A stretch of DNA of 64,000 bases from a virus, in IMG/VR virus record IMGVR_UViG_3300042359_000621; one strand, given 5' to 3'. The notes beneath the pieces are model-generated. The model was not told the DNA's origin and did not search any database. It saw only the letters and a program-made list of their open reading frames with translations. The translations under genes and the position numbers were made by a program. Position 1 is the stretch's first letter, and every line of letters starts with the position of its first letter. Positions 14,501 to 46,592 of this stretch are shown piece after piece.

Positions 14501-16563
14501 GGGATGATAAAGAAGGTCGGGAGGCTATTAACGCCGAGATAGGGAAACTCCAAGTTCAACGGCAAAAAACAATTAAGGACGGTTATGATCAAGAGCTTTC
14601 TACCCTTGAAAAACAACTCCAGAAAACCGTTGATTTAGTCAAAGAGGCTGAATTAATTAGACAAAGTGAAGTTCAGAAGTCGTTTAATGAATTTGGAGGT
14701 AATCAGAATTTAATTAACGAGGAAAATGTAAAAAACAACCTTAAGACCCTTGAGGCTGAATACAGTAACACGGTTAAAAAATTAAAGGAAACAAAATCTC
14801 AACCAGCACTATCAGATCCCCGACTAGAGACTGACAGACAAACTAAAATCAGAAAGTTAAGACAAGAACAACTCCAACAATCTTTGGGGATGTTGAAAGT
14901 CGAGAAAGAAGCCTGGGATGCTCATACTCAAACCGTTTTAGGGAATATTGCCAAAGAAAACAACGCCCAATTATTAAGCATAGAAAAGCAGATTAATAGC
15001 GGTAACGTACTGAGGGAATTAGAGGGGGCTGCAAGTGCTACCGATAAAGTTCAGGAGTTGCAAGTTCTACTTAGTCGAGAAAAAGACATTAATAAGCAAG
15101 CCGAGTTAAGGTTGTCCCTAGAGAAAGCTATCAGGGAAGAACGGGAAGCCTGGGGAGCATTGGGGATTGCCGAAATTGAAGCAATTAACAATCTTGAGTT
15201 AATCGCCTTAAAAAATCTGCTAAACCAAGGGAAAATTCTCAAGGAAGAATACGATCTAAAAATAGCACAGCAAGCCATAGAAACATTGCAAAAACGAATT
15301 AGTTTAGAGACGGATGTTGGCAAGAAAATCAAGCTCCAATTACAGCTAGTTGAAGAACAAGGGCGGTTGATTGATGCAAACGTAAGGAGATACGAAGCAG
15401 GGTTAAACAAGGAAGCACAAGCCTACGAGAACACCATTAAACGCCAGAATAATGAACTAGACAATCAGAGTCGGAAATTCGATATTCTCAATAAAGCCCT
15501 TCAGATGCGTTCGGAATTACAGGACGCACAGAAGGGGGTGTTTGACGCGGCTAATAGCTTTTACTCAGGGGAATTAGATGCTTTAGTCCAAGGGGAACGC
15601 TCCGAACGGAAGAAAAAACAACTTGCAGAATTAATCTCGGCTATTAAATTAAAATCAGCTATGCAACAAGCTGAGTTTGATAGACAAAGTCTGATATCCC
15701 AACAATTAATGAAAACCATCGAGTTTGAACGGGAGAAAATAGCTGCTAGAAGGGCGCTGAATGATGCGAAAATTGAAAAAAGAAAAGCTGATAATGCTCT
15801 TAAAGTAGCAAAAAAAGATCCTAGAACAACTCCAGAACAATTAGAGGAGCTGCAAACAGCAGCAGATATAGCAGAAGAGAACGTTGGCTACCAAGAGCAA
15901 AATTTAGGTTTATTACGGAAACAAGGCATTATCCAGTCAAAAGTTTTCAAACTCCAGAGAGAAGCGTTAGAATTCCGCAGTCAAGGGGCTATTCGTTCGG
16001 CACAGGTAGACTTAGCGAACAACACCAGTAACAGATCATTGAGACGACAGCGTTTTGCTGATATTACATCCAGTGTGCTTGATAGTTTTGGAGTAGACAG
16101 TATAAATGATCTAACGGGTCGAGCCGCGGCGACGGGAGAACAAGCCCTCAGAGAAAGTGGATTAAGGGGGGGTAGAAGACTTCCAGGGGGATTATCAGCA
16201 GAAGAACAGATGCGAAGCCTTAGAGGGGATTCTGGGGAGTTTTCTGGTGCAACAGGTAGCGCACCTTCTGAAATCTACAAACTAACTGGCGGACTCGGTG
16301 GGGGGTCGGCATCATCTCCTCAATTAACAGATCCTCTCAAACTTCCCTCTGCTTTGTCTCCCGTCCTATCCCCCATCGTCTCCCCAGACTTCTCACGGGC
16401 ATTGCAGCAAGCTACAGGGAAAGGTCAAACGACAATTTCTCCAACAATAAATATCCCGATTACCGTAATCGGCGATCAAAAAGTGGGAGAATCAATTAAG
16501 AAACAGGTTGAACCGAGGTTAGAAAATGTTATTCAACAAATGGTTAATCTCTCCCGTAATTAG
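11515..16563 (+). CDS. tail length tape-measure protein
   Basis: 1682 aa. The N-terminal third is rich in Gly/Ala hydrophobic segments. It is followed by about 900 aa of heptad-like coiled coil (E/K/Q-rich). It is the largest gene in the late block. Confidence 0.75.
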   Translation: MSSSSLSGVSITISASNQVSPVLRAIQGELLGLRQPLQVLDLFQSSFGGITSSIVQATTTIGFFGQGMSTLRGLVSNGPFKLLIGQTVELHGQLLSVASTMAATSKIISNGFEIKDPTQAILALNQPINDQIRQLRIDSIDLVGVTSKQLIPVFQQVAQGATPIGATLSDARSLTIDFAAALGTLQVPLFQSRQEIQSIFLGTIDMNSILAKSLGITNTMVAKWKAQGTLVQELTSRLSAFRAGNKLAAESFSGVTSNIQEMFELIGQRSGEKLLAPLTQSLNEVYKFLQTNLEMLVGESGKVTDQILRAGLAFQSIFKTVLGDVVTVFKDVPLFLFTSLANALEALNQGLGFTMTVLRPALNLFAALSSAVAPLASGFLVIALQVKALTVGVGILSKAFGILGGILLPGVGQIFPLLVANAGALGAAFTGLGGATIFSSVGMAQFSANLQQIPGAMTLMASATAALGNLLRTVGLAVVAFGAFKIIDEFILKNRGLMEVLGGVFGGLGEVVNILIGSWQSALITSTVVVGGLAIAFRAQLIPAVLSFISIQLAGVVTSSASAFVFLAGVLTSLGFSSMAITAGTAALHLQMLSASASLGTLTMGGLALAVKSVALSVATLLAPLAAVAAVVGGIGLVLYSQSLKDSTEATQELANRTEEYGDLAIDSLEKLSVAQKKQQESEKSGIRLTDEEYKNNQKLQNQAKLRIGLIEDQITALKEQEKTVKGDANKSNIQSQIGELEKLKTALAQASSNVVIAPKDLMVLGTALEQLKKKANEAMDAILKPSGDQEVFKKKASEVIEFNMALLEMGQTIDKDVITKLRQLANDTRLDQEVQRKAQETITKVIEQESKKRSDTIAKQKAEVESQQKNGEIGVRKSEKLITDLTIKELEERKSAQQEIQSEQRAFGNIEAARKAGEEIKKIESDITKAIAEERSKRNEELVKNFQEQQSIIEGYLAQGLTTEKNYNNQKSQLQIEGLDEQIRQQRNKLGKLAGDDKEGREAINAEIGKLQVQRQKTIKDGYDQELSTLEKQLQKTVDLVKEAELIRQSEVQKSFNEFGGNQNLINEENVKNNLKTLEAEYSNTVKKLKETKSQPALSDPRLETDRQTKIRKLRQEQLQQSLGMLKVEKEAWDAHTQTVLGNIAKENNAQLLSIEKQINSGNVLRELEGAASATDKVQELQVLLSREKDINKQAELRLSLEKAIREEREAWGALGIAEIEAINNLELIALKNLLNQGKILKEEYDLKIAQQAIETLQKRISLETDVGKKIKLQLQLVEEQGRLIDANVRRYEAGLNKEAQAYENTIKRQNNELDNQSRKFDILNKALQMRSELQDAQKGVFDAANSFYSGELDALVQGERSERKKKQLAELISAIKLKSAMQQAEFDRQSLISQQLMKTIEFEREKIAARRALNDAKIEKRKADNALKVAKKDPRTTPEQLEELQTAADIAEENVGYQEQNLGLLRKQGIIQSKVFKLQREALEFRSQGAIRSAQVDLANNTSNRSLRRQRFADITSSVLDSFGVDSINDLTGRAAATGEQALRESGLRGGRRLPGGLSAEEQMRSLRGDSGEFSGATGSAPSEIYKLTGGLGGGSASSPQLTDPLKLPSALSPVLSPIVSPDFSRALQQATGKGQTTISPTINIPITVIGDQKVGESIKKQVEPRLENVIQQMVNLSRN

Positions 16564-16769
16564 TAGAGCCAATGGCATTCCCCATGGTGTTGTTTTGCCC
16601 CGTGAGTCTGAAGCTGAATGTGATAGCAAAAAGGGTAAATTTTCAGCGTCTATTCATAATCAGCAACCCTGGGAAAAAGAGTATACATGGACTAAGATCA
16701 AGGGATGGTGGATTGATAATTAATTATGACTATTAAGATTAATTATAGACTGAAAATATATACAATATT

Positions 16770-16803
16770 AAACCCCGTAAAACATTGTTATTTTACGGGG
16801 TTT
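16770..16803. terminator. bidirectional intrinsic terminator
   Basis: Hairpin aaaccccgtaaaa..ttttacggggttt flanked by A and T runs, between convergent genes. Confidence 0.6.
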
Positions 16804-16830
16804 AAATAGTCTGAAACTATTGATTTATGT

Positions 16831-17613
16831 TCACTTGACGCGATCGCCAATAGCTCGAATCAATTTAGTGGCGTACCATTTCAACTGAGGGATATTTTTA
16901 CCCCCGTTAGTAGAGTTTAAAATCAACTTACCCAACCCCTCACTACTGGATGTGAGTTGATATTGAATACGCCCCTTCGCGTCACGGGTCAACACTTGCA
17001 AGCCCAACTCACACAGCATTTTATTGAGGTCGCGGGGTGTCATTTTAACGCCACTCGCTTCAAACATCGAACAAACCTCTGTGACCGTTGACAGGGTTTC
17101 AGGGAGTTCGATACTGGATACAATTAACTTCTGAGCATCCAGATAAATCTCACGGTTTGTGGTGTCAATTTTGGAGGCGAGTGTAACCAGCCCCCAAGAC
17201 TCCACGACGGGAGATTCTAACCCGCATAATGAGAGGGCTTTTTTAGCGTATTCCAAAGCGTCAAACGATGACGGTGAGGTGATAGCTCTTTGATGGGTGT
17301 AACTGCCAGTTTCTCGGATGGAAGGTAAGACTTCCTCAAAAACCCAGTCCTGAAACTTTTCAGCAGCCGGGAGACTTGACCGCATGATTAATTGATAAAG
17401 TCCAGGCTCACTGATAAAATTCGGGCTTTTACCCGGTTTACCTAAATCTAACTGCTGGTTATATTTACCTGAAACGTTATCCTGCAATGCTTTTGATGGA
17501 TTTGCGTACCCCAAAGCCTTAGCAACTTGTGAAGCATTGAACCAAGGTTGACCGTCAATGACTATGACATCAAGGGAGTTTTGCTCGAAAACAAAAACTG
17601 ATATACTTTGCAT
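16831..17613 (-). CDS. Bro-N domain (BRO / antirepressor family) protein
   Basis: The N-terminus VIDGQPWFNASQVAKALGYANPSKALQDNV...FISEPGLYQLIMRS..AEKFQDWVFEEVLPSIRETG matches the Bro-N pattern. Confidence 0.75.
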   Translation of the reverse strand: MQSISVFVFEQNSLDVIVIDGQPWFNASQVAKALGYANPSKALQDNVSGKYNQQLDLGKPGKSPNFISEPGLYQLIMRSSLPAAEKFQDWVFEEVLPSIRETGSYTHQRAITSPSSFDALEYAKKALSLCGLESPVVESWGLVTLASKIDTTNREIYLDAQKLIVSSIELPETLSTVTEVCSMFEASGVKMTPRDLNKMLCELGLQVLTRDAKGRIQYQLTSSSEGLGKLILNSTNGGKNIPQLKWYATKLIRAIGDRVK

Positions 17614-17690
17614 TAGTTGACCTGTGTATTAGGTTGACTCATCCCCCGGACATTTACAGTGTTGCGGGGGTATTCCTTATTATATCGGAT
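17614..17690 (-). promoter_or_regulatory. conserved 5' leader with hairpin (copy 1; copy 2 at 32668-32740)
   Basis: About 75 nt directly upstream of the Bro-N start is near-identical in layout to the leader of the KilA-N gene. It contains the hairpin cccccgcaaca..ccggggg. Confidence 0.45.
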
Positions 17691-17739
17691 TTTAAAGCTG
17701 GTAATTGGAATTAAGCCCAACCCGAATCCAGTCACAAAA

Positions 17740-17766
17740 AGAGGGAGTCGAAACCCCCTCTTTTTT
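17740..17766. terminator. orphan intrinsic terminator-like hairpin
   Basis: agagggagtcgaaaccccctc followed by T6 on the + strand. No annotated + strand gene lies upstream of it. Confidence 0.5.
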
Positions 17767-17795
17767 GGTGATTACCTATTTTTAAAATTGCTAAC
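17767..17795 (+). repeat. degenerate sense copy of the CRISPR repeat 3' two-thirds
   Basis: ggtgattacctatttttaaaattgctaac compared with repeat 15 ggtgattacctgttttaaggattgaaac gives about 23 of 28 positions with one indel. Confidence 0.4.
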
Positions 17796-17932
17796 CATAT
17801 CTGGCTAGAGAATATTCCCTCTTCATCGCCTAATCGTTAATCCTTTCGGCTCCAAGGGCAGCTTTTGGCTTGCCGATCTAAACATCGGTGATTCCATTAT
17901 ATACAACTATAATTGGAAATGTCAACATATAC

Positions 17933-17948
17933 GTTTCAATTTCTTAAA
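17933..17948 (+). other. anti-repeat-like segment overlapping the RBS region of the Cas12-like gene
   Basis: gtttcaatttcttaaa is the reverse complement of the repeat tail tttaagaattgaaac (variant in repeats 10-12), except for one extra t. Confidence 0.35.
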
Positions 17949-17953
17949 TAGGT

Positions 17954-19627
17954 ATGTCTAATTTTAGCGATAATGTGCGAACAAAGGAGTTTAAGCTCAT
18001 TCTATCCTCGGAACAAGAGCGAACCCTAGAAGATTGGATGCTAGTCTGTAAGTGGGTTTGGAATCGTTCACTGGGATTGATAGAGGAATTTAACGAGTGG
18101 AACCCCTACGATAGAATATCAAAGTCTAACGTCCCCGCTACTCCCCTGCAACGATATGATCGCAAGCTCAAGCAATGGGTACGAATTGAGATCCCAGATT
18201 GGAAGATGGGGATTGAACGAGTTGAGAAGAAAAGGGGATTCATCCATCCCGTTGCTATTGATGAGAATAGTCCGGTTATTGACTCACTAGATTCTAAAAA
18301 ATCAGTGCTATACGGATTTCTAAAAATGTTTGGACATCAACACCACAAAGATCGGATCGTGACTTATTTAATTAGAGGTGAGGAACGAAAAGTCAATTTC
18401 ACCGACTGCCCTGCAAAATTTATCCAAGGGGTAGCGCATGAACTCTCGAAGGCTTGGGAGGGATTTCTGGCGGGTCGCCATAGTCGTCCCCGATTCAAAA
18501 CAGCCAAAGATAAGGTGATGACTTTGATCCACTATAACGCCAGGGATCTAGGGGTTAAGGATGGTAAAATTAATATTCCTAAGTTGGGTTATATTGAAGT
18601 AATTGGGCTTGATAAGCGGTGGTATGGTTGCGATTTTAACCCGATGAAAATTTGCAAAAAAGCGTCGGGGTGGTATATACAATTAACTGCGTCCGTCCCT
18701 GTCAAACAAGCCAAGAAGACAGGGTTATGTTGTGGAATTGACCCCGGACATCAGTTTGTTATGGCATTGGATAATGGTCACACTATTGAGGCTGCACAAC
18801 CATTGAAACGTGGGTTAAAACGTTTAAGAAAAATGCAGCAACAATTATCTCGCAAGTATCGAATGAACGGGGGGAAGACTAAGAACTGGGAGAAACTTAA
18901 CAATAAGATTGCTAAACTTCACGAAAAGATCGCCCGTCACCGTCGATCTTTTAACCATTGGCATTCGACTAATTTAATTAATTGGTTTGATGTGATTTTT
19001 GTAGAAGATTATAAACCCGCCAATGTTTACCGAAAAGCTAAAGCTAAGGCAAAACTAGATACAGAGGGGGCTCCAATGGTAGCTGCAAATGGTACGGCTA
19101 TCTATGAGAAGAACAATCAGAAACGCAAGCGGGGAAGTAATAGAACAGGAAATGATGTGGCTATCGGTCAGGCTATTGATCTATTAGAAACCAAGGGAAA
19201 GGAACACGGAAAGTTAGTAATTCGGGTCGATAATTGGGGGACTACTTTATGTTGTGCAAAGTGTGGACACCAAGAGAAGAAAAAACTATCACAACGAACT
19301 CACAAATGCTCTAATTGTGGCTATACTGTGGCTCGTGATGTTAACTCAGGACAGAATATTAAACTGAAAGGTTTGGCTCAAATGGCAATCAATCAAGGTG
19401 TGGAGTTATCCGATAATTTCTGGTATAAATTCTTGATTGATAAAAATTCGGCAACCCCTAGCGGTTCTAAGAAGGCGACCAAGAAAAAGCCTAAAAAGTC
19501 AGACACCGTAATCATTCCAGATGATTTGTTTAAAAATGGGGTTCACGAATTTTTGATCGGTGAAACTGCCAAAACTCGTGCTATAATAAATGAAATGAGC
19601 TTAGGTAATTTCGATAGAAACGCCTGA
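17954..19627 (+). CDS. compact TnpB-like type V CRISPR effector candidate (Cas12-like, 557 aa)
   Basis: TnpB-type layout with an N-terminus KEFKLILSSEQERTLEDWMLVCKWVWNRSL, then RPRFKTAKD and IPKLGYIEV. RuvC-I is GIDPG (D263, 18740-18742). RuvC-II is IFVEDY (E351, 19004-19006). Zn ribbon is CAKCG..CSNCG. RuvC-III is ARDVNSGQNI (D462, 19337-19339). Its stop lies 19 nt before the first CRISPR repeat. Confidence 0.8.
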   Translation: MSNFSDNVRTKEFKLILSSEQERTLEDWMLVCKWVWNRSLGLIEEFNEWNPYDRISKSNVPATPLQRYDRKLKQWVRIEIPDWKMGIERVEKKRGFIHPVAIDENSPVIDSLDSKKSVLYGFLKMFGHQHHKDRIVTYLIRGEERKVNFTDCPAKFIQGVAHELSKAWEGFLAGRHSRPRFKTAKDKVMTLIHYNARDLGVKDGKINIPKLGYIEVIGLDKRWYGCDFNPMKICKKASGWYIQLTASVPVKQAKKTGLCCGIDPGHQFVMALDNGHTIEAAQPLKRGLKRLRKMQQQLSRKYRMNGGKTKNWEKLNNKIAKLHEKIARHRRSFNHWHSTNLINWFDVIFVEDYKPANVYRKAKAKAKLDTEGAPMVAANGTAIYEKNNQKRKRGSNRTGNDVAIGQAIDLLETKGKEHGKLVIRVDNWGTTLCCAKCGHQEKKKLSQRTHKCSNCGYTVARDVNSGQNIKLKGLAQMAINQGVELSDNFWYKFLIDKNSATPSGSKKATKKKPKKSDTVIIPDDLFKNGVHEFLIGETAKTRAIINEMSLGNFDRNA

Positions 19628-19646
19628 AACACTTGCGGATTAAGCT

Positions 19647-20817
19647 CTCGCAATAGGTGATTATCTGGTTTAAGGATTGAAACCTCCCTCCTGGGGTGTG
19701 TAGGATTGGTATTAATCCGACTCGCAATAGGTGATTATCTGGTTTAAGGATTGAAACTTATTGAATCCTGTGCGATCGCCACACTTTCGGGCTTTGATCT
19801 CGCAATAGGTGATTATCTGGTTTAAGGATTGAAACAGAAGATAATTTGAGTCCCCCCTTTACTTTTGAATTGATCTCGCAATAGGTGATTATCTGGTTTA
19901 AGGATTGAAACACAACGGCTCCCATATTGAGTTTCAAATACTTTTCCCTCGCAATAGGTGATTATCTGGTTTAAGGATTGAAACGCGACTGTTCAACACC
20001 GGAATTAAATATAATTCCCGCTCGCAATAGGTGATTATCTGGTTTAAGGATTGAAACTTTCCCATAACTTATCCGGCGGTTGCTGTTTAGAGAACTCGCA
20101 ATAGGTGATTATCTGGTTTAAGGATTGAAACTCAAAACCCATACACAGAGGGAGTGCCGGGTAAGTCGCTCGCAATAGGTGATTGCCTGTTTTAAGGATT
20201 GAAACAACGGGTGGGAATCCATTTTTATTAATGATTTAATCAAGCTCGCAATAGGTGATTATCTGGTTTAAGGATTGAAACCAGAAAATCAGATTGATTG
20301 TATCATAATTGACCCGTTAGATTTCTCGCAATAGGTGATTGCCTGTTTTAAGAATTGAAACATCCATGTTGAATAGTTGGATTGCTTGACAACAATACTC
20401 GCAATAGGTGATTGCCTGTTTTAAGAATTGAAACTTTAACCCTTCTACAGCATCACTGGATGATATTAAGCCTCGCAATAGGTGATTGCCTGTTTTAAGA
20501 ATTGAAACTATATCAGCGATATGGCCGGGCTTTATGGGTATTGCTTGGAGCACTCGCAATAGGTGATTGCCTGTTTTAAGGATTGAAACATATCGAGATT
20601 AATTCATTTGAAAATACTCCCATTGCTGCTCGCAATAGGTGATTGCCTGTTTTAAGGATTGAAACGATTGAATTTGAGCTACCATGTCATTAAGTCCTTT
20701 AACTATTTCTCGCAATAGGTGATTACCTGTTTTAAGGATTGAAACGATTGGAGTCGGTTGGGAAGCCTTGCAAACGTTACCTCGCAATAGGTGATTGCCT
20801 GTTTTAAGGATTGAAAC
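19647..20817 (+). CRISPR. CRISPR array, 16 x 37-bp repeats and 15 spacers
   Basis: The repeat is CTCGCAATAGGTGATTATCTGGTTTAAGGATTGAAAC in repeats 1-7 and 9. The variant ..GATTGCCTGTTTTAAG(G/A)ATTGAAAC occurs in repeats 8 and 10-16. Spacer lengths are 37, 41, 39, 36, 36, 37, 37, 39, 43, 36, 37, 44, 39, 43 and 35 nt, and all spacers are unique. Confidence 0.95.
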
Positions 20818-20825
20818 AGGAGATA

Positions 20826-20852
20826 GGGGTATTTTTCAACCCCGTTGTTTTT
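20826..20852 (+). terminator. weak intrinsic terminator after the last repeat
   Basis: A 5-bp stem ggggt/acccc with an 8-nt loop is followed by gttgttttta. This supports + strand transcription of the array. Confidence 0.35.
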
Positions 20853-21273
20853 ACCGACCAAGGGACGCTCTAGCATCACTCAGTATCTTGTTCATCTGGG
20901 CTTCCGTAATATCAAAGTCGGGTGTGTTGGGTCTGATGCGCCCGTTGCTGAATGCTTTCCCTGCGTAGCTGCGAATTACGGGGATTGTAGCGGGTCGGGG
21001 TCGGGTTTGGGTTGTTACAGGTCGCAAGGTTTTGTATGCGTTCATCCACTTATTAGTCTTGACCGTTGCCCAATTCCCGTTAAGGACTACACCCTTCTCG
21101 GTACGGATGAAATGGACTGTTTGGCCGTTTTCCATTAATTCAGTCCAACCATAGCGGATTTCAATCGTCCCATCTGGGTGAACCATTTTGATTGTGTCGA
21201 TTGTGATTCCGTCAAACGTTGAGGTGTAGCTTGAGATGATTTCGGTTGTGATTGTGGCGATTTGAGCTACCAT
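20851..21273 (-). CDS. hypothetical protein (140 aa)
   Basis: Clean ORF. Its start region is echoed by CRISPR spacers 14 and 15. No motif recognised. Confidence 0.55.
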   Translation of the reverse strand: MVAQIATITTEIISSYTSTFDGITIDTIKMVHPDGTIEIRYGWTELMENGQTVHFIRTEKGVVLNGNWATVKTNKWMNAYKTLRPVTTQTRPRPATIPVIRSYAGKAFSNGRIRPNTPDFDITEAQMNKILSDARASLGR

Positions 21274-21343
21274 GATATTTAGATCCTTAGTTGGGTTGGG
21301 TGGAGTCGGTTGGGTGTCCCTGGTAAGTTGCTCGACCGACTTT

Positions 21344-21480
21344 GTTTTACTTCTATGTTTTACATCTTAACCGATTTGTTTTACTTTGTCTAGTGGTTTT
21401 ACTTTAGTATTACTTATAGGTTTATACTGTTTTACAGAATTACAATCAATTTTACTTATATGTCTTACTATTCGTTTTAC
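21344..21480. repeat. iteron-like cluster of GTTTTAC heptamers
   Basis: Exact GTTTTAC occurs at 21344, 21357, 21378, 21396, 21429 and 21474. Variants occur at 21407, 21449 and 21462. The cluster sits in a divergent intergenic region. Confidence 0.6.
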
Positions 21481-21522
21481 ATCGTGCTACACTTGAAGGT
21501 AAGACACAAAAGGAGTAAACCG

Positions 21523-21894
21523 ATGGCGGCTAACAAATTAATTAACTTTCGATGCCCTGATGACTTACTTGCTGCGATTGAAGTCTACGGCAGGGAACAC
21601 TACCCTAACGGTCGGGGTAATACTGATTTTGACCAAAGCAAAGCACTCAGAGATATTCTAATTTCTGGTCTGGAGAGTTTAACTAACGGGGAAGTGAAAC
21701 TTGAGAGGGAACCCGTAAAATACAAGTCAGACAATAGCTCCTATGTGGAGTTGTTGGATAGGATTGCCAAACTAGAGGCGCAGCAACCCACAGCTATTGA
21801 TCCAACTATTATGGCGCGGCTAGATGCGATGGAGGCTGCAATCGCATTTGAGAAGGTGATGGGGATTTTGAAACAAATTGAAACCCCTAGTTGA
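21523..21894 (+). CDS. possible ribbon-helix-helix DNA-binding protein
   Basis: ATG is preceded by AAAGGAG. The N-terminus LINFRCPDDLLAAIEVYGRE fits an RHH strand-helix. The track start at 21460 lies inside the iteron cluster, so it was rejected. Confidence 0.5.
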   Translation: MAANKLINFRCPDDLLAAIEVYGREHYPNGRGNTDFDQSKALRDILISGLESLTNGEVKLEREPVKYKSDNSSYVELLDRIAKLEAQQPTAIDPTIMARLDAMEAAIAFEKVMGILKQIETPS

Positions 21895-21927
21895 TTTTTA
21901 ATCGGAATCAAGCAATTATCACTAATT

Positions 21928-21960
21928 AAAAAGGGTAGAGATTGAACCTCTACCCTTTTT
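21928..21960. terminator. bidirectional intrinsic terminator
   Basis: aaaaagggtagag-attgaac-ctctacccttttt lies between convergent genes. Confidence 0.6.
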
Positions 21961-21991
21961 AATGTTTGGTTTTAACTAAGTATTCTGCTAA

Positions 21992-22819
21992 TTACTCACC
22001 GATAATCATTTGGCGATCGCCTTTTTGATTTGCCCATAATTCCCGAACCTCGTCAACCAACTCCGCAGGGATATAGTCGGTTTGGACTGGACGCATTGCT
22101 TTAGAAATCAGGTGATCTTTACCGCAGGATTCTAACCACTTCTGAAATTCCTTTCCAGTTTTAAACTTTAATTCTTTGCCAAATTGAGCCAATGACTTCC
22201 CACGAAATACAGCTAACTGTTTTCCGTCTTCATTCATGACAACCGATTCAAACTGGGTTTCAGTTTCTCTCACCACCGCTTCACGACGACCCTGGATGAG
22301 TGCCAAGGTTCCCGCCCCATGAAGTGAAACAATGGCAGAACCGGACTCCAAAACAAGTCGTTGATCTCTCATGCTGTTGGCTTGAGCTTCGGCAATTCTG
22401 ACTTGTAACCGGAGAAATTCTAGCTCATCATTTTGTTGGGGGATGACGGTTTCAGCTTCACGGGTTTTGATAACGAAGTAGGCTTGAGCTTGTGCAATTT
22501 CCGGTTTGCGGGGGTCGCCGTTCATCGCAACTAAATAACAGGCATATCGGGATAGCTTACAATCCTCTTGAGGGCGACCCGAAGTTTTTGCCACCTCCGG
22601 CAAAAAGTCTTTACTGACTGAGTTTCCGGCATTTTGTTGGGATAGAATAGCTCGGTCAATTGCATCAGCAAATCGTCGGTATTGCTTATATCCCAACAGT
22701 CCCATTAACTCCCGTGCCATCCAATACTCGCAGCCTTCACGGTCAACGCGCTTAATGGAGTCAAAAGGGGATTTGGATTGATTGTGGTCTTGATTGCCAG
22801 ACAATGCTAAACTAGACAT
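21992..22819 (-). CDS. DinD-like (DNA-damage-inducible protein D family) protein
   Basis: SPFDSIKRVDREGCEYWMARELMGLLGY..F.DAIDRA...LSRYACYLVAMNGDPRKPEIAQAQAYFVIKTRE matches my recollection of the DinD signature. Confidence 0.65.
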   Translation of the reverse strand: MSSLALSGNQDHNQSKSPFDSIKRVDREGCEYWMARELMGLLGYKQYRRFADAIDRAILSQQNAGNSVSKDFLPEVAKTSGRPQEDCKLSRYACYLVAMNGDPRKPEIAQAQAYFVIKTREAETVIPQQNDELEFLRLQVRIAEAQANSMRDQRLVLESGSAIVSLHGAGTLALIQGRREAVVRETETQFESVVMNEDGKQLAVFRGKSLAQFGKELKFKTGKEFQKWLESCGKDHLISKAMRPVQTDYIPAELVDEVRELWANQKGDRQMIIGE

Positions 22820-23011
22820 AGGAAACCCTCCTTTGGGTTGTTATAAGTAATTTTTGAGAAAAGCTGGAGACTTACTACTTCCTCCGGCTTTTCTCATTCC
22901 TATATTATACACCAAATTAACAGGAGCTTGAATAAAAAACGGGGTATTTAGCAAGTAAATAATATTAAAATTGTGCGGTGGTAAATTATATTAAATACCC
23001 TACAATAATCC

Positions 23012-23347
23012 CTAGATATCCCCATTATCTTCATCTTCTAAACTTTGGATATGGTCAAATACTACGCCCGTTTGATAGATTTGTTCATGGAGTGTGGCAA
23101 TGGCTTTAACCGTCTCTACTGCCATCCTTCCGTGAATATGCGTCCCTGATTTGGTTAACTTGCCACAGGCTTTCATTGGGTCATCGCTCTTGGATGCTTG
23201 ACTATAAGCCTTTGCACTAACAGCAATAGAAGATGATGCGATTACGTCTAACCCACGCAAATAAACCTCCATCCTTTTGATTCCATCCTCAAGATCCTTT
23301 TTATACTTCTCTCTATTTTCCTCAATCATTGATTTAATTGCCTCCAT
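23012..23347 (-). CDS. hypothetical protein; an in-frame upstream extension encodes an HTH
   Basis: The ATG-initiated ORF is 111 aa. The frame stays open to 23530 and encodes LSNREVASQIGVSEGIIRHWKK, with no ATG, GTG or TTG. Confidence 0.45.
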   Translation of the reverse strand: MEAIKSMIEENREKYKKDLEDGIKRMEVYLRGLDVIASSSIAVSAKAYSQASKSDDPMKACGKLTKSGTHIHGRMAVETVKAIATLHEQIYQTGVVFDHIQSLEDEDNGDI

Positions 23348-23530
23348 TTTTTCGTTAATAATCTCTCGTTTCCTTTCTTCCCAAATGGGTTGTTTTTTCC
23401 AGTGTCTTATTATCCCTTCTGAAACTCCAATCTGACTGGCAACCTCTCTGTTGGACAGGGATGGGTTGTCAAGAAATGCCTTAACAGCATCTTTGATCAG
23501 ATGTGCCTTACCTCCCTTTATTTCGCAACC

Positions 23531-46230: not shown

Positions 46231-46592
46231 ATTTTCCTTTGTTGTTTATCTGTTCGTTTTGAATTGTTCATAATATCGGTTACAAACAATGTTGTTATGG
46301 ATTGCAACTAACGGGGGAATTGTTAGGTAAATAAAAATTCCAAAAATCATCCATTGGATAATAAATCTATGGTTTATCGTTATCACAAATCCCCCTCTAT
46401 ATAAGCTCGACAAAAGGCTCCGGTATTGTCTGGGGTGCGATTATCGGTAATATCTGCACCCCCTCTCTTTAGGCAAATAAAATAAGTTAAGAACCAAACT
46501 ACTATCCAAAACATCATTTCTTTGCGTGTGTAAAAATTCCACATTGGTTTCTGTGATGTTTCAATTCTTGTTTAAATCAATAATAAAAACCA

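Follow-up and report, generated by a model that had tools for sequence, protein, structure and literature searches.

The Saccharolobus portogloboviruses SPV1 and SPV2 carry mini-CRISPR arrays that act in interviral conflict, and such virus-borne arrays target close relatives, with the carrier's own orthologous locus mutated or deleted and the targets lying near the array (Medvedeva et al. 2019, PMC6858448). Phage mini-arrays follow the same pattern according to Faure et al. 2019, as cited in PMC6858448. Among cyanophages, a V-U2 system has been described in CL131 (PMC6293099). For type V-K systems, a GTN PAM, 37-nt repeats and adaptation provided in trans by type I-D systems have been proposed (bioRxiv 10.1101/2021.02.06.429022), and in one study every P. 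agardhii isolate examined had a type I-D system whose 37-nt repeat ends in ATTGAAAG (PMC9398003).

Here we describe a type V locus in IMG/VR record IMGVR_UViG_3300042359_000621, a stretch of 64,000 nucleotides that we refer to as the window. A sequence-only reading had drawn attention to the last two spacers of its CRISPR array, which resemble the start and upstream region of the gene next to the array, and had offered three interpretations: capture from a related phage, regulatory guides, or a recombination scar.

A compact cassette in a PaV-LD-like phage

Judged by gene order, the window is a PaV-LD-like Planktothrix cyanophage: it is syntenic with PaV-LD across the tape-measure gene, the Bro/Ant genes and the methylases (79-98% identity), which places the CRISPR array within a viral genome. 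It carries a compact type V cassette, consisting of an effector gene, a candidate tracrRNA and a 16-repeat array, flanked by Ant/Bro ORFs, ORF140, a small ORF and a DinD-like gene. Its parts are as follows.

17735..17925, minus strand: candidate tracrRNA gene, with predicted promoter, anti-repeat and hairpin terminator
17954..19627, plus strand: putative type V effector, 557 aa, TnpB-derived and C2c8/V-U2-like
19560..19587, plus strand: promoter-like site, located ~60 nt ahead of the first repeat and within the 3′ end of the effector gene
19647..20817, plus strand: CRISPR array of 16 37-nt repeats and 15 unique spacers of 35-44 nt
20826..20853, plus strand: hairpin followed by a T-run, directly after the last repeat

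The effector gene ends 19 nt before the first repeat, so that a single RuvC effector of the TnpB/Cas12 lineage adjoins the array. Its Pfam domains are Cas12f1-like_TNB, OrfB_IS605 and HTH_OrfB. The best-scoring family, NCBIfam V_cas_c2c8 (NF038192), matched residues 10-444 with an E value of 4e-88 and 296 bits, below the cut-off of 350 bits, and we therefore name the effector C2c8-like rather than a member of subtype V-U2; NCBIfam guided_TnpB scored 175 bits, above its cut-off. The RuvC D-E-D triad and the zinc-finger cysteines align with those of ISDra2 TnpB, and the triad is intact. The effector looks active by these residues, presumably as an RNA-guided DNA nuclease.

Upstream, on the opposite strand, the candidate tracrRNA gene has a promoter sequence, TTGACA-18-TATAAT at 17925..17896, that matches the consensus at 12/12 positions, an anti-repeat at about 17766-17795, and a predicted hairpin terminator at 17758-17742. 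The repeat:anti-repeat duplex reaches −31.9 kcal/mol, compared with a window background of −13.5 ± 3.4, and the predicted fold leaves the anti-repeat unpaired (z = −2.55). This element is conserved at every effector locus, and its terminator stem shows compensatory changes. An Rfam search of positions 16500 to 23500 returned nothing significant. The promoter-like site ahead of the array is a consensus match only (10/12 positions plus an extended TG).

Within the array, two main repeat variants, ATTATCTGG and ATTGCCTGT, are mixed. Homology to CRISPR-less sibling phages restarts exactly at 20818, the first base past the last repeat. A search of 185,579 representative genomes found the repeat in only one contig, 3.4 kb long, which was mis-binned into a 'Gammaproteobacteria' MAG and evidently comes from this type of phage. 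The same effector, at 77-99% identity, was found in 19 related IMG/VR contigs, 18 of which hold arrays. These arrays have distal spacers in common and differ in their effector-end spacers, revealing spacer turnover at the effector end; altogether they comprise 88 unique spacers.

Spacers 14 and 15 and the start of ORF140

The trailer end of the array and the neighboring genes are arranged as follows.

20666..20708, plus strand: spacer 14 (S14), 43 nt, copied from a sibling allele of ORF140 and spanning its ribosome-binding site, start codon and first six codons (MVAQIQ)
20709..20745, plus strand: repeat 15, the sole ATTACC variant in the window array, dividing two source-contiguous spacers
20746..20780, plus strand: spacer 15 (S15), 35 nt, the oldest, trailer-end spacer, a sibling-allele copy of the ORF140 5′ untranslated region
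20851..21273, minus strand: ORF140, a 140-aa protein, highly polymorphic among PaV-LD-like phages
21254..21296, plus strand: resident counterpart of the S14 protospacer, with ATT rather than GTN before it and mismatches to S14 positions 2-6
21295..21332, plus strand: resident counterpart of the S15 protospacer, with a GTT PAM at 21295-21297, mismatches to S15 positions 2-3, then 14 matches, then divergence
21344..21480, plus strand: six GTTTTAC iterons in the stretch that separates ORF140 from the divergent small ORF
21523..21894, plus strand: divergent 123-aa ORF, its C-terminal half conserved in PaV-LD ORF094R

Recomputation reproduced both exact matches reported by the sequence-only reading, 15 nt of S14 at 21260-21274 (ATTTGAGCTACCATG) and 14 nt of S15 at 21301-21314 (TGGAGTCGGTTGGG). 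Ungapped extension of the S14 match gave 24/30 positions, and the reported 22/35 for S15 with its flanks is likewise an ungapped count. The reverse complement of S14, ATG GTA GCT CAA ATT CAA, does encode MVAQIQ, compared with MVAQIATI at the start of the resident ORF. The reading's judgment that a chance origin is very unlikely also stood: the other 13 spacers have longest matches of only 10-13 nt elsewhere in the window, and only 3/300 shuffled spacers reached at least 14 nt. From these numbers we estimate the chance of two adjacent spacers matching colinear same-strand sites ~40 nt apart at roughly 1e-7, and chance was rejected as the origin of the matches.

The spacer-to-site offsets are 588 for S14 and 552 for S15, a difference equal to the repeat length minus 1. 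When aligned to sibling alleles, S14 and S15 abut without a gap and therefore represent one contiguous ~78-nt homologue. This joint sequence is a diverged copy of the 5′ region of ORF 20851..21273 together with its ribosome-binding site and start codon. The junction between the array and ORF140 was not found in any other IMG/VR contig, and it may thus be an assembly join.

ORF140 itself falls into at least 148 clusters at 90% identity, all unnamed and 65-89% identical to the window copy. It had no Pfam, NCBIfam or PHROG match and none to PDB sequences, and its AlphaFold2 model (pLDDT 71) gave no Foldseek match with E < 0.5. Half of the 12 GTTTTAC occurrences in the 64-kb window lie within the 137-nt iteron stretch, all on one strand, and this stretch is likely an operator or other regulatory region. 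The N-terminus of the divergent 123-aa ORF is ribbon-helix-helix-like, as judged by eye only; searches assigned this ORF to neither a Pfam, NCBIfam nor PHROG family, and the PDB held nothing similar in sequence.

Sibling alleles, the PAM and the targets of related arrays

The start region of ORF140 exists in many alleles among related phage contigs, and several of these alleles fit S14 and S15 better than the resident one does. The commonest allele class matches S15 perfectly over positions 1-17 behind a GTT PAM; 16 fetched loci show this, 3 of them from the set of 7 that was obtained by protein alone. S14 is matched perfectly over positions 1-20 in two contigs, L062 (36/43 overall) and L067, both with TTG instead of GTN upstream, and at 34/38 positions in a third, L003. 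Much of the sibling sampling relied on a search pattern that fixed S14 positions 7-20 and S15 positions 6-17 as matching, so that loci found in this way carry information only at the other positions. Both spacers begin at positions bearing GTN in sibling alleles, such as GTT-GATTGGAGTCGGTTGGG..., GTN-GATTGAATTTGAGCTACCAT... and GTT-GATTGGAGTCGGTTGGGCGTCC.

The sequence-only reading had called for perfect protospacers at the orthologous position with a shared PAM, and this was borne out in part: a shared GTN PAM and partial perfect stretches were found, and neither S14 nor S15 had a perfect protospacer over its full length in IMG/VR, JGI metagenomes or reachable ENA/Logan contigs. A gapped pattern over conserved blocks recovered 24 alleles from 10 viral and 21 metagenome contigs, none of them a full-length perfect match, and the S14-S15 junction AACTATTTGATTGGAGTC had no match in IMG/VR. 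ENA/Logan contigs encoding MVAQIQS-type ORF140 alleles match 20 nt of S14 perfectly; the rest of S14 is imperfect there and the S15 part unmatched. A single-molecule donor for both spacers would give S15 a PAM of TTT, the 3′ end of S14.

Among spacer-target pairs of at least 85% identity, GT occupied positions −3/−2 in 12 of 19, and among pairs of at least 97% identity in 8/8, against a background frequency of 5%; no motif was found on the 3′ side of protospacers. This consistent 5′ motif on foreign protospacers points to 5′-GTN as the PAM. A T-rich PAM, raised earlier from the TT before both resident sites, was rejected on these 19 good protospacers: the TT is present, but related phages give GTN.

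Targets cluster around ORF140 well beyond the last two spacers. In total, 8 of the window's 15 spacers match sibling phages around this locus, and 30 of the 88 spacers from all arrays match sibling contigs. S3, S4, S5, S6, S11 and S12 match siblings at 87-97% identity over aligned stretches of 29-39 nt, at targets −850 to +3590 nt from the ORF140 start, and neighboring spacers often aim at neighboring sites (S3/S4 and S5/S6). The targets of S3, S4 and S12 fall in the segment replaced by the cassette in the window phage, and those of S3, S4, S11 and S12 are absent from the window. In other arrays, ORF140 alleles are likewise the source of a spacer beginning ACCATTGATTTAAGTCC... (33/36 to L062) and of the L012 array's first spacer. 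The conserved core is matched by none of the 88 spacers. Against the complete PaV-LD genome and the remainder of the window, all 88 gave only chance-level matches of 12-18 nt, apart from the S14/S15 self-matches and S8, which showed a 21/23 match.

Proposed inter-phage exclusion, its alternatives and known systems

We propose that the window phage would wield its own type V cassette against sibling phages co-infecting the same host. S14 and S15, the oldest, trailer-end spacers, would have been taken from another allele of the hypervariable ORF140 5′ end, probably through the Cas1-Cas2-Cas4 proteins of a host type I-D system. Their crRNAs, each a repeat handle (...AUUGAAAC) plus spacer, would pair with the candidate tracrRNA and guide the nuclease, over a probable guide length of about 17-20 nt, to sibling genomes bearing a GTN PAM and a matching PAM-proximal segment. 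The phage would be spared self-cutting because the resident allele differs at S15 positions 2-3 and at S14 positions 2-6, where GTN is also lacking. Because an allelic locus is targeted, the likeness between the spacers and the neighboring gene would be a by-product, and the close linkage between array and resistant allele would keep 'weapon' and 'shield' together.

We consider inter-phage CRISPR exclusion, self-protected by allele differences, the highly probable role of S14 and S15. Capture from the orthologous locus of a related phage, with mismatches shielding the carrier, had been the first interpretation of the sequence-only reading, and it gains support from the better-matching sibling alleles and from the six other window spacers that match sibling phages near ORF140. 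Two marks of interviral conflict are present: spacers that match closely related viruses, and a carrier locus that is itself altered, through seed mismatches to S14 and S15, loss of the S14 PAM and absence of the S3, S4, S11 and S12 targets. Weighing against this explanation are the failure to find a full-length perfect protospacer in the collections searched, the TTG ahead of the perfect 20-nt S14 matches and the TTT that a single-molecule donor would place before S15.

CreA/CreR (CreTA), Francisella scaRNA and Cas9 tracr-L provide the model for the second interpretation; in these systems, guides pair with the target via their PAM-proximal part and are conserved with it. By analogy, S14 and/or S15 crRNAs would bind the resident ORF140 5′ region, as DNA or mRNA, and tune expression without cleavage. 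In favor of this, a GTT PAM and an unbroken run of 14 matches are retained at the resident S15 site, within the 5′ untranslated region; S14 covers the start codon as well as the ribosome-binding site; the sequence indicates that either crRNA would lie antisense to ORF140 mRNA; and an iteron-rich control region adjoins the target. Yet the PAM-proximal seed is mismatched in both spacers (S15 positions 2-3, S14 positions 2-6), the resident S14 site has no GTN PAM, the repeats around the two spacers are ordinary rather than degenerate, and the effector nuclease site is intact. Nor is a guide-target pair conserved: two other effector lineages with known resident alleles, L012 and L023, have no spacer like their own ORF140 start, and S14 and S15 occur in no other contig's array and beside no other repeat in IMG/VR. 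Both spacers, moreover, fit sibling alleles better than the carrier's own. We therefore find the regulatory proposal unsupported and very improbable. There is also a very slim chance that S15 additionally tunes ORF140 at home, by weak effector-crRNA binding without cutting or by mRNA pairing, in which case one guide would be a weapon against sibling phages and a regulator at home.

A recombination scar or non-canonical capture, the third interpretation, would derive S14-repeat-S15 not from two ordinary acquisitions but from a long captured fragment that was split, or from an exchange in which the array recombined with a genome bearing ORF140; the unit would have no present function. The exact abutment of S14 and S15 in the sibling-allele alignment speaks for such an origin, as do the unusual length of S14 (43 nt), the mosaic of repeat variants, the lack of adaptation genes in the cassette, its occurrence in at least three different genomic contexts and its position at a rearrangement junction, with CRISPR-less sibling homology resuming past the last repeat. 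However, both spacers start where sibling alleles have GTN, as expected of PAM-selected acquisition, the neighboring targets of S3/S4 and S5/S6 fit single-invader or interference-stimulated acquisition, and the rearrangement is explicable without recombination at the spacers; a scar is not needed, and we judge it improbable. Finally, the spacers could have been captured from this phage's own ancestor, whose genome later escaped by mutation, as might be suggested by a target that shares its genome with the array and lies only 0.5 kb away. Against this, the distinguishing spacer-side states (TTGAATTTGAGC with three extra bases, GATTGGAG and TTAAGTCCTTTAACTA) are shared with natural sibling allele classes, and the resident class (GGGTGGAG; GCGATTTGAGC), whose S14 site, compared with the source allele class, carries a deletion of 3 nt, is found in several other contigs too. 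Both types are therefore standing alleles rather than new escape mutations, making self-derived spacers most unlikely.

Inter-phage exclusion at this locus would represent a clear bacterial-virus case of CRISPR warfare between sibling phages, with a weapon spacer beside a resistant target allele, in an ecologically important phage group that infects bloom-forming Planktothrix. The phenomenon has already been described in archaeal viruses and phage mini-arrays, so the conceptual gain is modest. The related contigs also form a natural data set on a compact TnpB-like effector, with 88 spacers, a GTN PAM and a tracrRNA candidate, and they suggest a contribution of inter-phage CRISPR pressure to the diversification of a small regulatory module.

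Compared with known systems, S14 and S15 resemble CreA/CreR, scaRNA and tracr-L guides in their partial complementarity to a promoter-proximal site near a cas locus, but they are seed-mismatched and are not conserved in related cassettes. With Cas12k of cyanobacterial CASTs (V-K), the window system shares the GTN PAM, 37-nt repeats ending in ...TTGAAA(G/C), ~35-nt spacers, the lack of an adaptation module and a cyanobacterial setting rich in type I-D systems. Its RuvC is intact, however, a PDB search revealed no detectable sequence match between the effector and Cas12k chains, no Tn7 genes (tnsB/tnsC/tniQ) lie beside the cassette, and S14 and S15 sit between full-length repeats of a normal array rather than in the truncated, delocalized repeat-spacer unit of a CAST homing guide. 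Cyanophage CL131 likewise shares structural genes with PaV-LD and has a TnpB-like C2c8-type effector beside an array without adaptation genes. For CL131, no tracrRNA or phage targets were reported, and one spacer partially matches a cyanobacterial pseudogene, whereas the analysis of the window system identified a GTN PAM, a candidate tracrRNA and targets in sibling phages. A further parallel is with the SPV1 and SPV2 mini-arrays, whose spacers also match close viruses at targets near the array, with the carrier's own locus mutated or deleted. Unlike these, the window phage, whose host is a cyanobacterium, has its own effector, of type V, together with a candidate tracrRNA and a 15-spacer array, and would not depend on its host for interference.

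The CRISPR cassette and its relatives

The window phage is a close relative of Planktothrix phage PaV-LD and carries a tape-measure gene, Ant/Bro genes and methylases, together with a cassette of effector, candidate tracrRNA and CRISPR array, whose repeats and spacers are numbered from the effector end:

17735-17925, minus strand: candidate tracrRNA gene upstream of the effector, with promoter, anti-repeat and hairpin terminator
17954-19627: effector of 557 aa with TnpB/Cas12f domains, its 3′ end 19 nt before the first repeat
19647-20817, plus strand: CRISPR array of sixteen 37-nt repeats and fifteen spacers
20666-20708: spacer 14 (S14), sharing an exact 15-mer with 21260-21274
20746-20780: spacer 15 (S15), sharing an exact 14-mer with 21301-21314

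The top NCBIfam family of the effector is type V C2c8 (V-U2; E 4e-88, under the model's cut-off). Of natural proteins with solved structures, ISDra2 TnpB comes closest, and the effector's RuvC Asp-Glu-Asp and zinc-finger cysteines align with it. The minus-strand unit is taken to be a tracrRNA from its sequence features: a perfect TTGACA-18-TATAAT promoter (sigma-70 consensus; 17925..17896), then a segment pairing with the spacer-proximal 28 nt of the repeat, then a hairpin terminator. This unit is kept in all related cassettes, and the terminator stem shows compensatory changes. A promoter-like site within the 3′ end of the effector gene and a hairpin with a T-run directly 3′ of the last repeat would delimit the array transcript. 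Separately, the 18 nt 5′ of the first repeat (19629-19646) agree at 12/18 positions with 19781-19798, where spacer 2 has its 3′ end, possibly by chance.

The same effector occurs in nineteen IMG/VR contigs (77-99% identity), 18 of them with arrays, which together with the window array hold 88 unique spacers. Distal spacers are common to related arrays and effector-end spacers differ, so new spacers enter beside the effector and S14 and S15 are the oldest in their array. One related array contains a duplicated spacer-repeat unit, that is, two consecutive identical spacers (contig L013, 3541-3663). Within the window array, repeats 1-7 and 9 carry ATTATCTGG, repeats 8, 10-14 and 16 carry ATTGCCTGT, and an ATTACC variant is confined to repeat 15; AAGAATTG, in repeats 10-12, is the same as in PaV-LD. 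This mosaic suggests array-array recombination.

The cassette occupies at least three contexts in related phages: between Ant and ORF140, the gene adjoining the array, in the window (17707-20817); between the small ORF and the DinD-like gene in contig L012 (5754-8613) and PaV-LD; and between homologues of window 62356 and 62964 in contig L018 (5781-8310). It therefore moves as a unit, its right boundary lying exactly at the last repeat. The PaV-LD reference itself holds a decayed cassette (locus L001, 7035-7443; HQ683709 about 68769-69177), unannotated in that record. What is left there is the tracrRNA region and the effector's first 22 codons, these codons joined directly to a degenerate repeat, after which come one spacer and another repeat. 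Four otherwise different arrays keep the 16-nt mini-spacer AGAGATATTCTTGATG and, directly after it, the variant repeat GACAATTGCC (contigs L015 3743-3758, L020 7950-7965, L021 6505-6520 and L022 3220-3235); the pair recalls truncated guide units, and a convincing target for the mini-spacer was not found. A 3.4-kb Lake Mendota contig in a 'Gammaproteobacteria' MAG (L059, JBIPMB010000293.1) carries a phage array with the spacers of related contig L024, and is probably mis-binned.

Two spacers resembling the start of ORF140

The sequence-only reading had matched S14 and S15 to the start region of ORF140 (20851..21273, minus strand; 140 aa), and recomputation recovered both exact matches. The ORF140 start codon falls within the S14 site, and the S14 reverse complement indeed encodes MVAQIQ, against MVAQIATI at the ORF140 N-terminus. 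Ungapped, S14 agrees with the resident allele, the window's own copy, at 24/30 positions and S15 at 22/35. Because the best matches of the remaining 13 spacers elsewhere in the window are just 10-13 nt, and only 3/300 shuffled spacers reached 14 nt, an adjacent spacer pair with colinear, same-strand sites ~40 nt apart is not a product of chance (rough estimate 1e-7), as that reading had supposed.

Clustering at 90% identity splits the large, highly polymorphic and unnamed ORF140 family into at least 148 groups. Start-region alleles were gathered by protein-based retrieval, by a two-conserved-block pattern and from contigs encoding chosen protein alleles; the resulting locus counts include some contigs more than once. 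Several alleles from related PaV-LD-like contigs (siblings) match the two spacers better than the resident allele does:

S15, commonest sibling allele class: positions 1-17 perfect, GTT before
S14, siblings L062 and L067: positions 1-20 perfect
S14, sibling L062: 36/43 overall
S14, sibling L003: 34/38

Aligned with related alleles, S14 and S15 abut exactly and make up a single continuous homologue of ~78 nt, which a repeat splits in the array. Another spacer (ACCATTGATTTAAGTCC...), which seven other arrays carry close to their distal end, derives from the same ORF140 site in a different register (33/36 in L062). No second assembly with the array-ORF140 junction was found in IMG/VR. Between ORF140 and a divergent 123-aa ORF, six GTTTTAC iterons lie on one strand within 137 nt (21344-21480), as many as in the remainder of the window, and probably form an operator, origin or centromere-like site.

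PAM, sibling targets and probable self-avoidance

Among 19 spacers having a target at ≥85% identity, GT stands at -3/-2 in 12/19 pairs (background 5%) and in 8/8 pairs with at least 97% identity, with no enrichment on the 3′ side of these 19 protospacers. The PAM is 5′-GTN, which displaces the T-rich 5′ PAM entertained earlier. Related genomes share a flanking PAM, which the sequence-only reading had proposed to look for; the perfect full-length S14 or S15 donor that was also looked for was absent from the IMG/VR, JGI metagenome and ENA/Logan contigs searched. The resident S15 site keeps GTT and is mismatched at spacer positions 2 and 3; the resident S14 site is preceded by ATT, lacks 3 nt that the source allele class has, and is mismatched at positions 2-6. 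In Cas12 and TnpB, type V guides begin pairing at such PAM-proximal positions, so self-targeting should fail.

Sibling targets were found for 8 of the 15 window spacers, from -850 to +3590 nt of the ORF140 start, a concentration that is partly ascertainment because much sampled sibling DNA centres on ORF140. Spacers 3, 4 and 12 match a sibling segment downstream of ORF140 that in the window phage is swapped for the Ant gene and the CRISPR cassette, and spacer 11 matches an ~800-nt insert missing from the window phage. Different arrays sample the same sites repeatedly, in other registers, strands or alleles. Against the complete PaV-LD genome and the rest of the window, the 88 spacers gave nothing above chance save S14/S15 and spacer 8, as expected if spacers against conserved genes would be suicidal. 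Spacer 8 (20206-20244) matches 46567-46589 (minus strand) at 21/23 positions on the opposite strand, with GTN absent beside the site, and may be a further case of a sibling target whose self copy has diverged.

Origin of the spacers and comparison with known systems

The sequence-only reading weighed capture from a related phage's orthologous locus, with mismatches sparing self, and capture is supported by the better sibling matches and the altered resident seed and PAM. Those same seed mismatches, and the missing PAM at the S14 site, leave its alternative of regulatory crRNAs unsupported; the repeats flanking S14 and S15 are ordinary, neither spacer occurs in any other IMG/VR array, and two other cassette lineages with known alleles of their own have no equivalent spacer. 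The exact abutment of S14 and S15 would suit a recombination scar, but adjacent spacers in this array often target adjacent sites, which fits acquisition from one invader or stimulated by cleavage, and a scar is not required. Derivation from self is unlikely: spacer-like and resident allele classes each occur in several other contigs, so the resident state is standing variation, not a newly arisen escape mutation.

CRISPR cutting of co-infecting siblings is favoured as the most likely mechanism. The infecting phage would make effector, tracrRNA and crRNAs and cut sibling genomes carrying GTN and a matching allele, its own allele being spared because seed and PAM differ or because the target is missing. 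The arrays resemble those of types I-D and V-K in their 37-nt repeats ending ...ATTGAAAC, ~35-nt spacers and GTN PAM. One proposal for V-K (bioRxiv 10.1101/2021.02.06.429022) has type I-D supplying adaptation in trans and a mature guide of 17 nt, and all P. agardhii isolates studied carry type I-D with a 37-nt repeat ending ATTGAAAG (PMC9398003); from these parallels we infer that host type I-D Cas1-Cas2-Cas4 would load the arrays. With a mature guide of ~17-20 nt, S15 would still fully match the commonest sibling allele. Proximity of array and target has been noted earlier, without explanation (PMC6858448); tight linkage of the array to the resistant allele would keep recombination from making self-targeting genomes, and may serve as such a guard.

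In archaeal portogloboviruses (Medvedeva et al.), viral spacers target close relatives, the carrier's orthologous locus is mutated or deleted, and targets lie near the array (PMC6858448), three elements that the window phage has in common; phage mini-arrays follow the same pattern according to Faure et al. as cited there, and a 2024 review also summarizes it (PMC11656645). The V-U2 system of cyanophage CL131, a PaV-LD relative, was reported without targets or tracrRNA (PMC6293099), whereas the window cassette has both a tracrRNA candidate and sibling targets. Our literature search found no paper on this cassette in PaV-LD-like phages, and since its pattern matches that of portogloboviruses and mini-arrays, it adds a further instance of an already known interviral CRISPR phenomenon.
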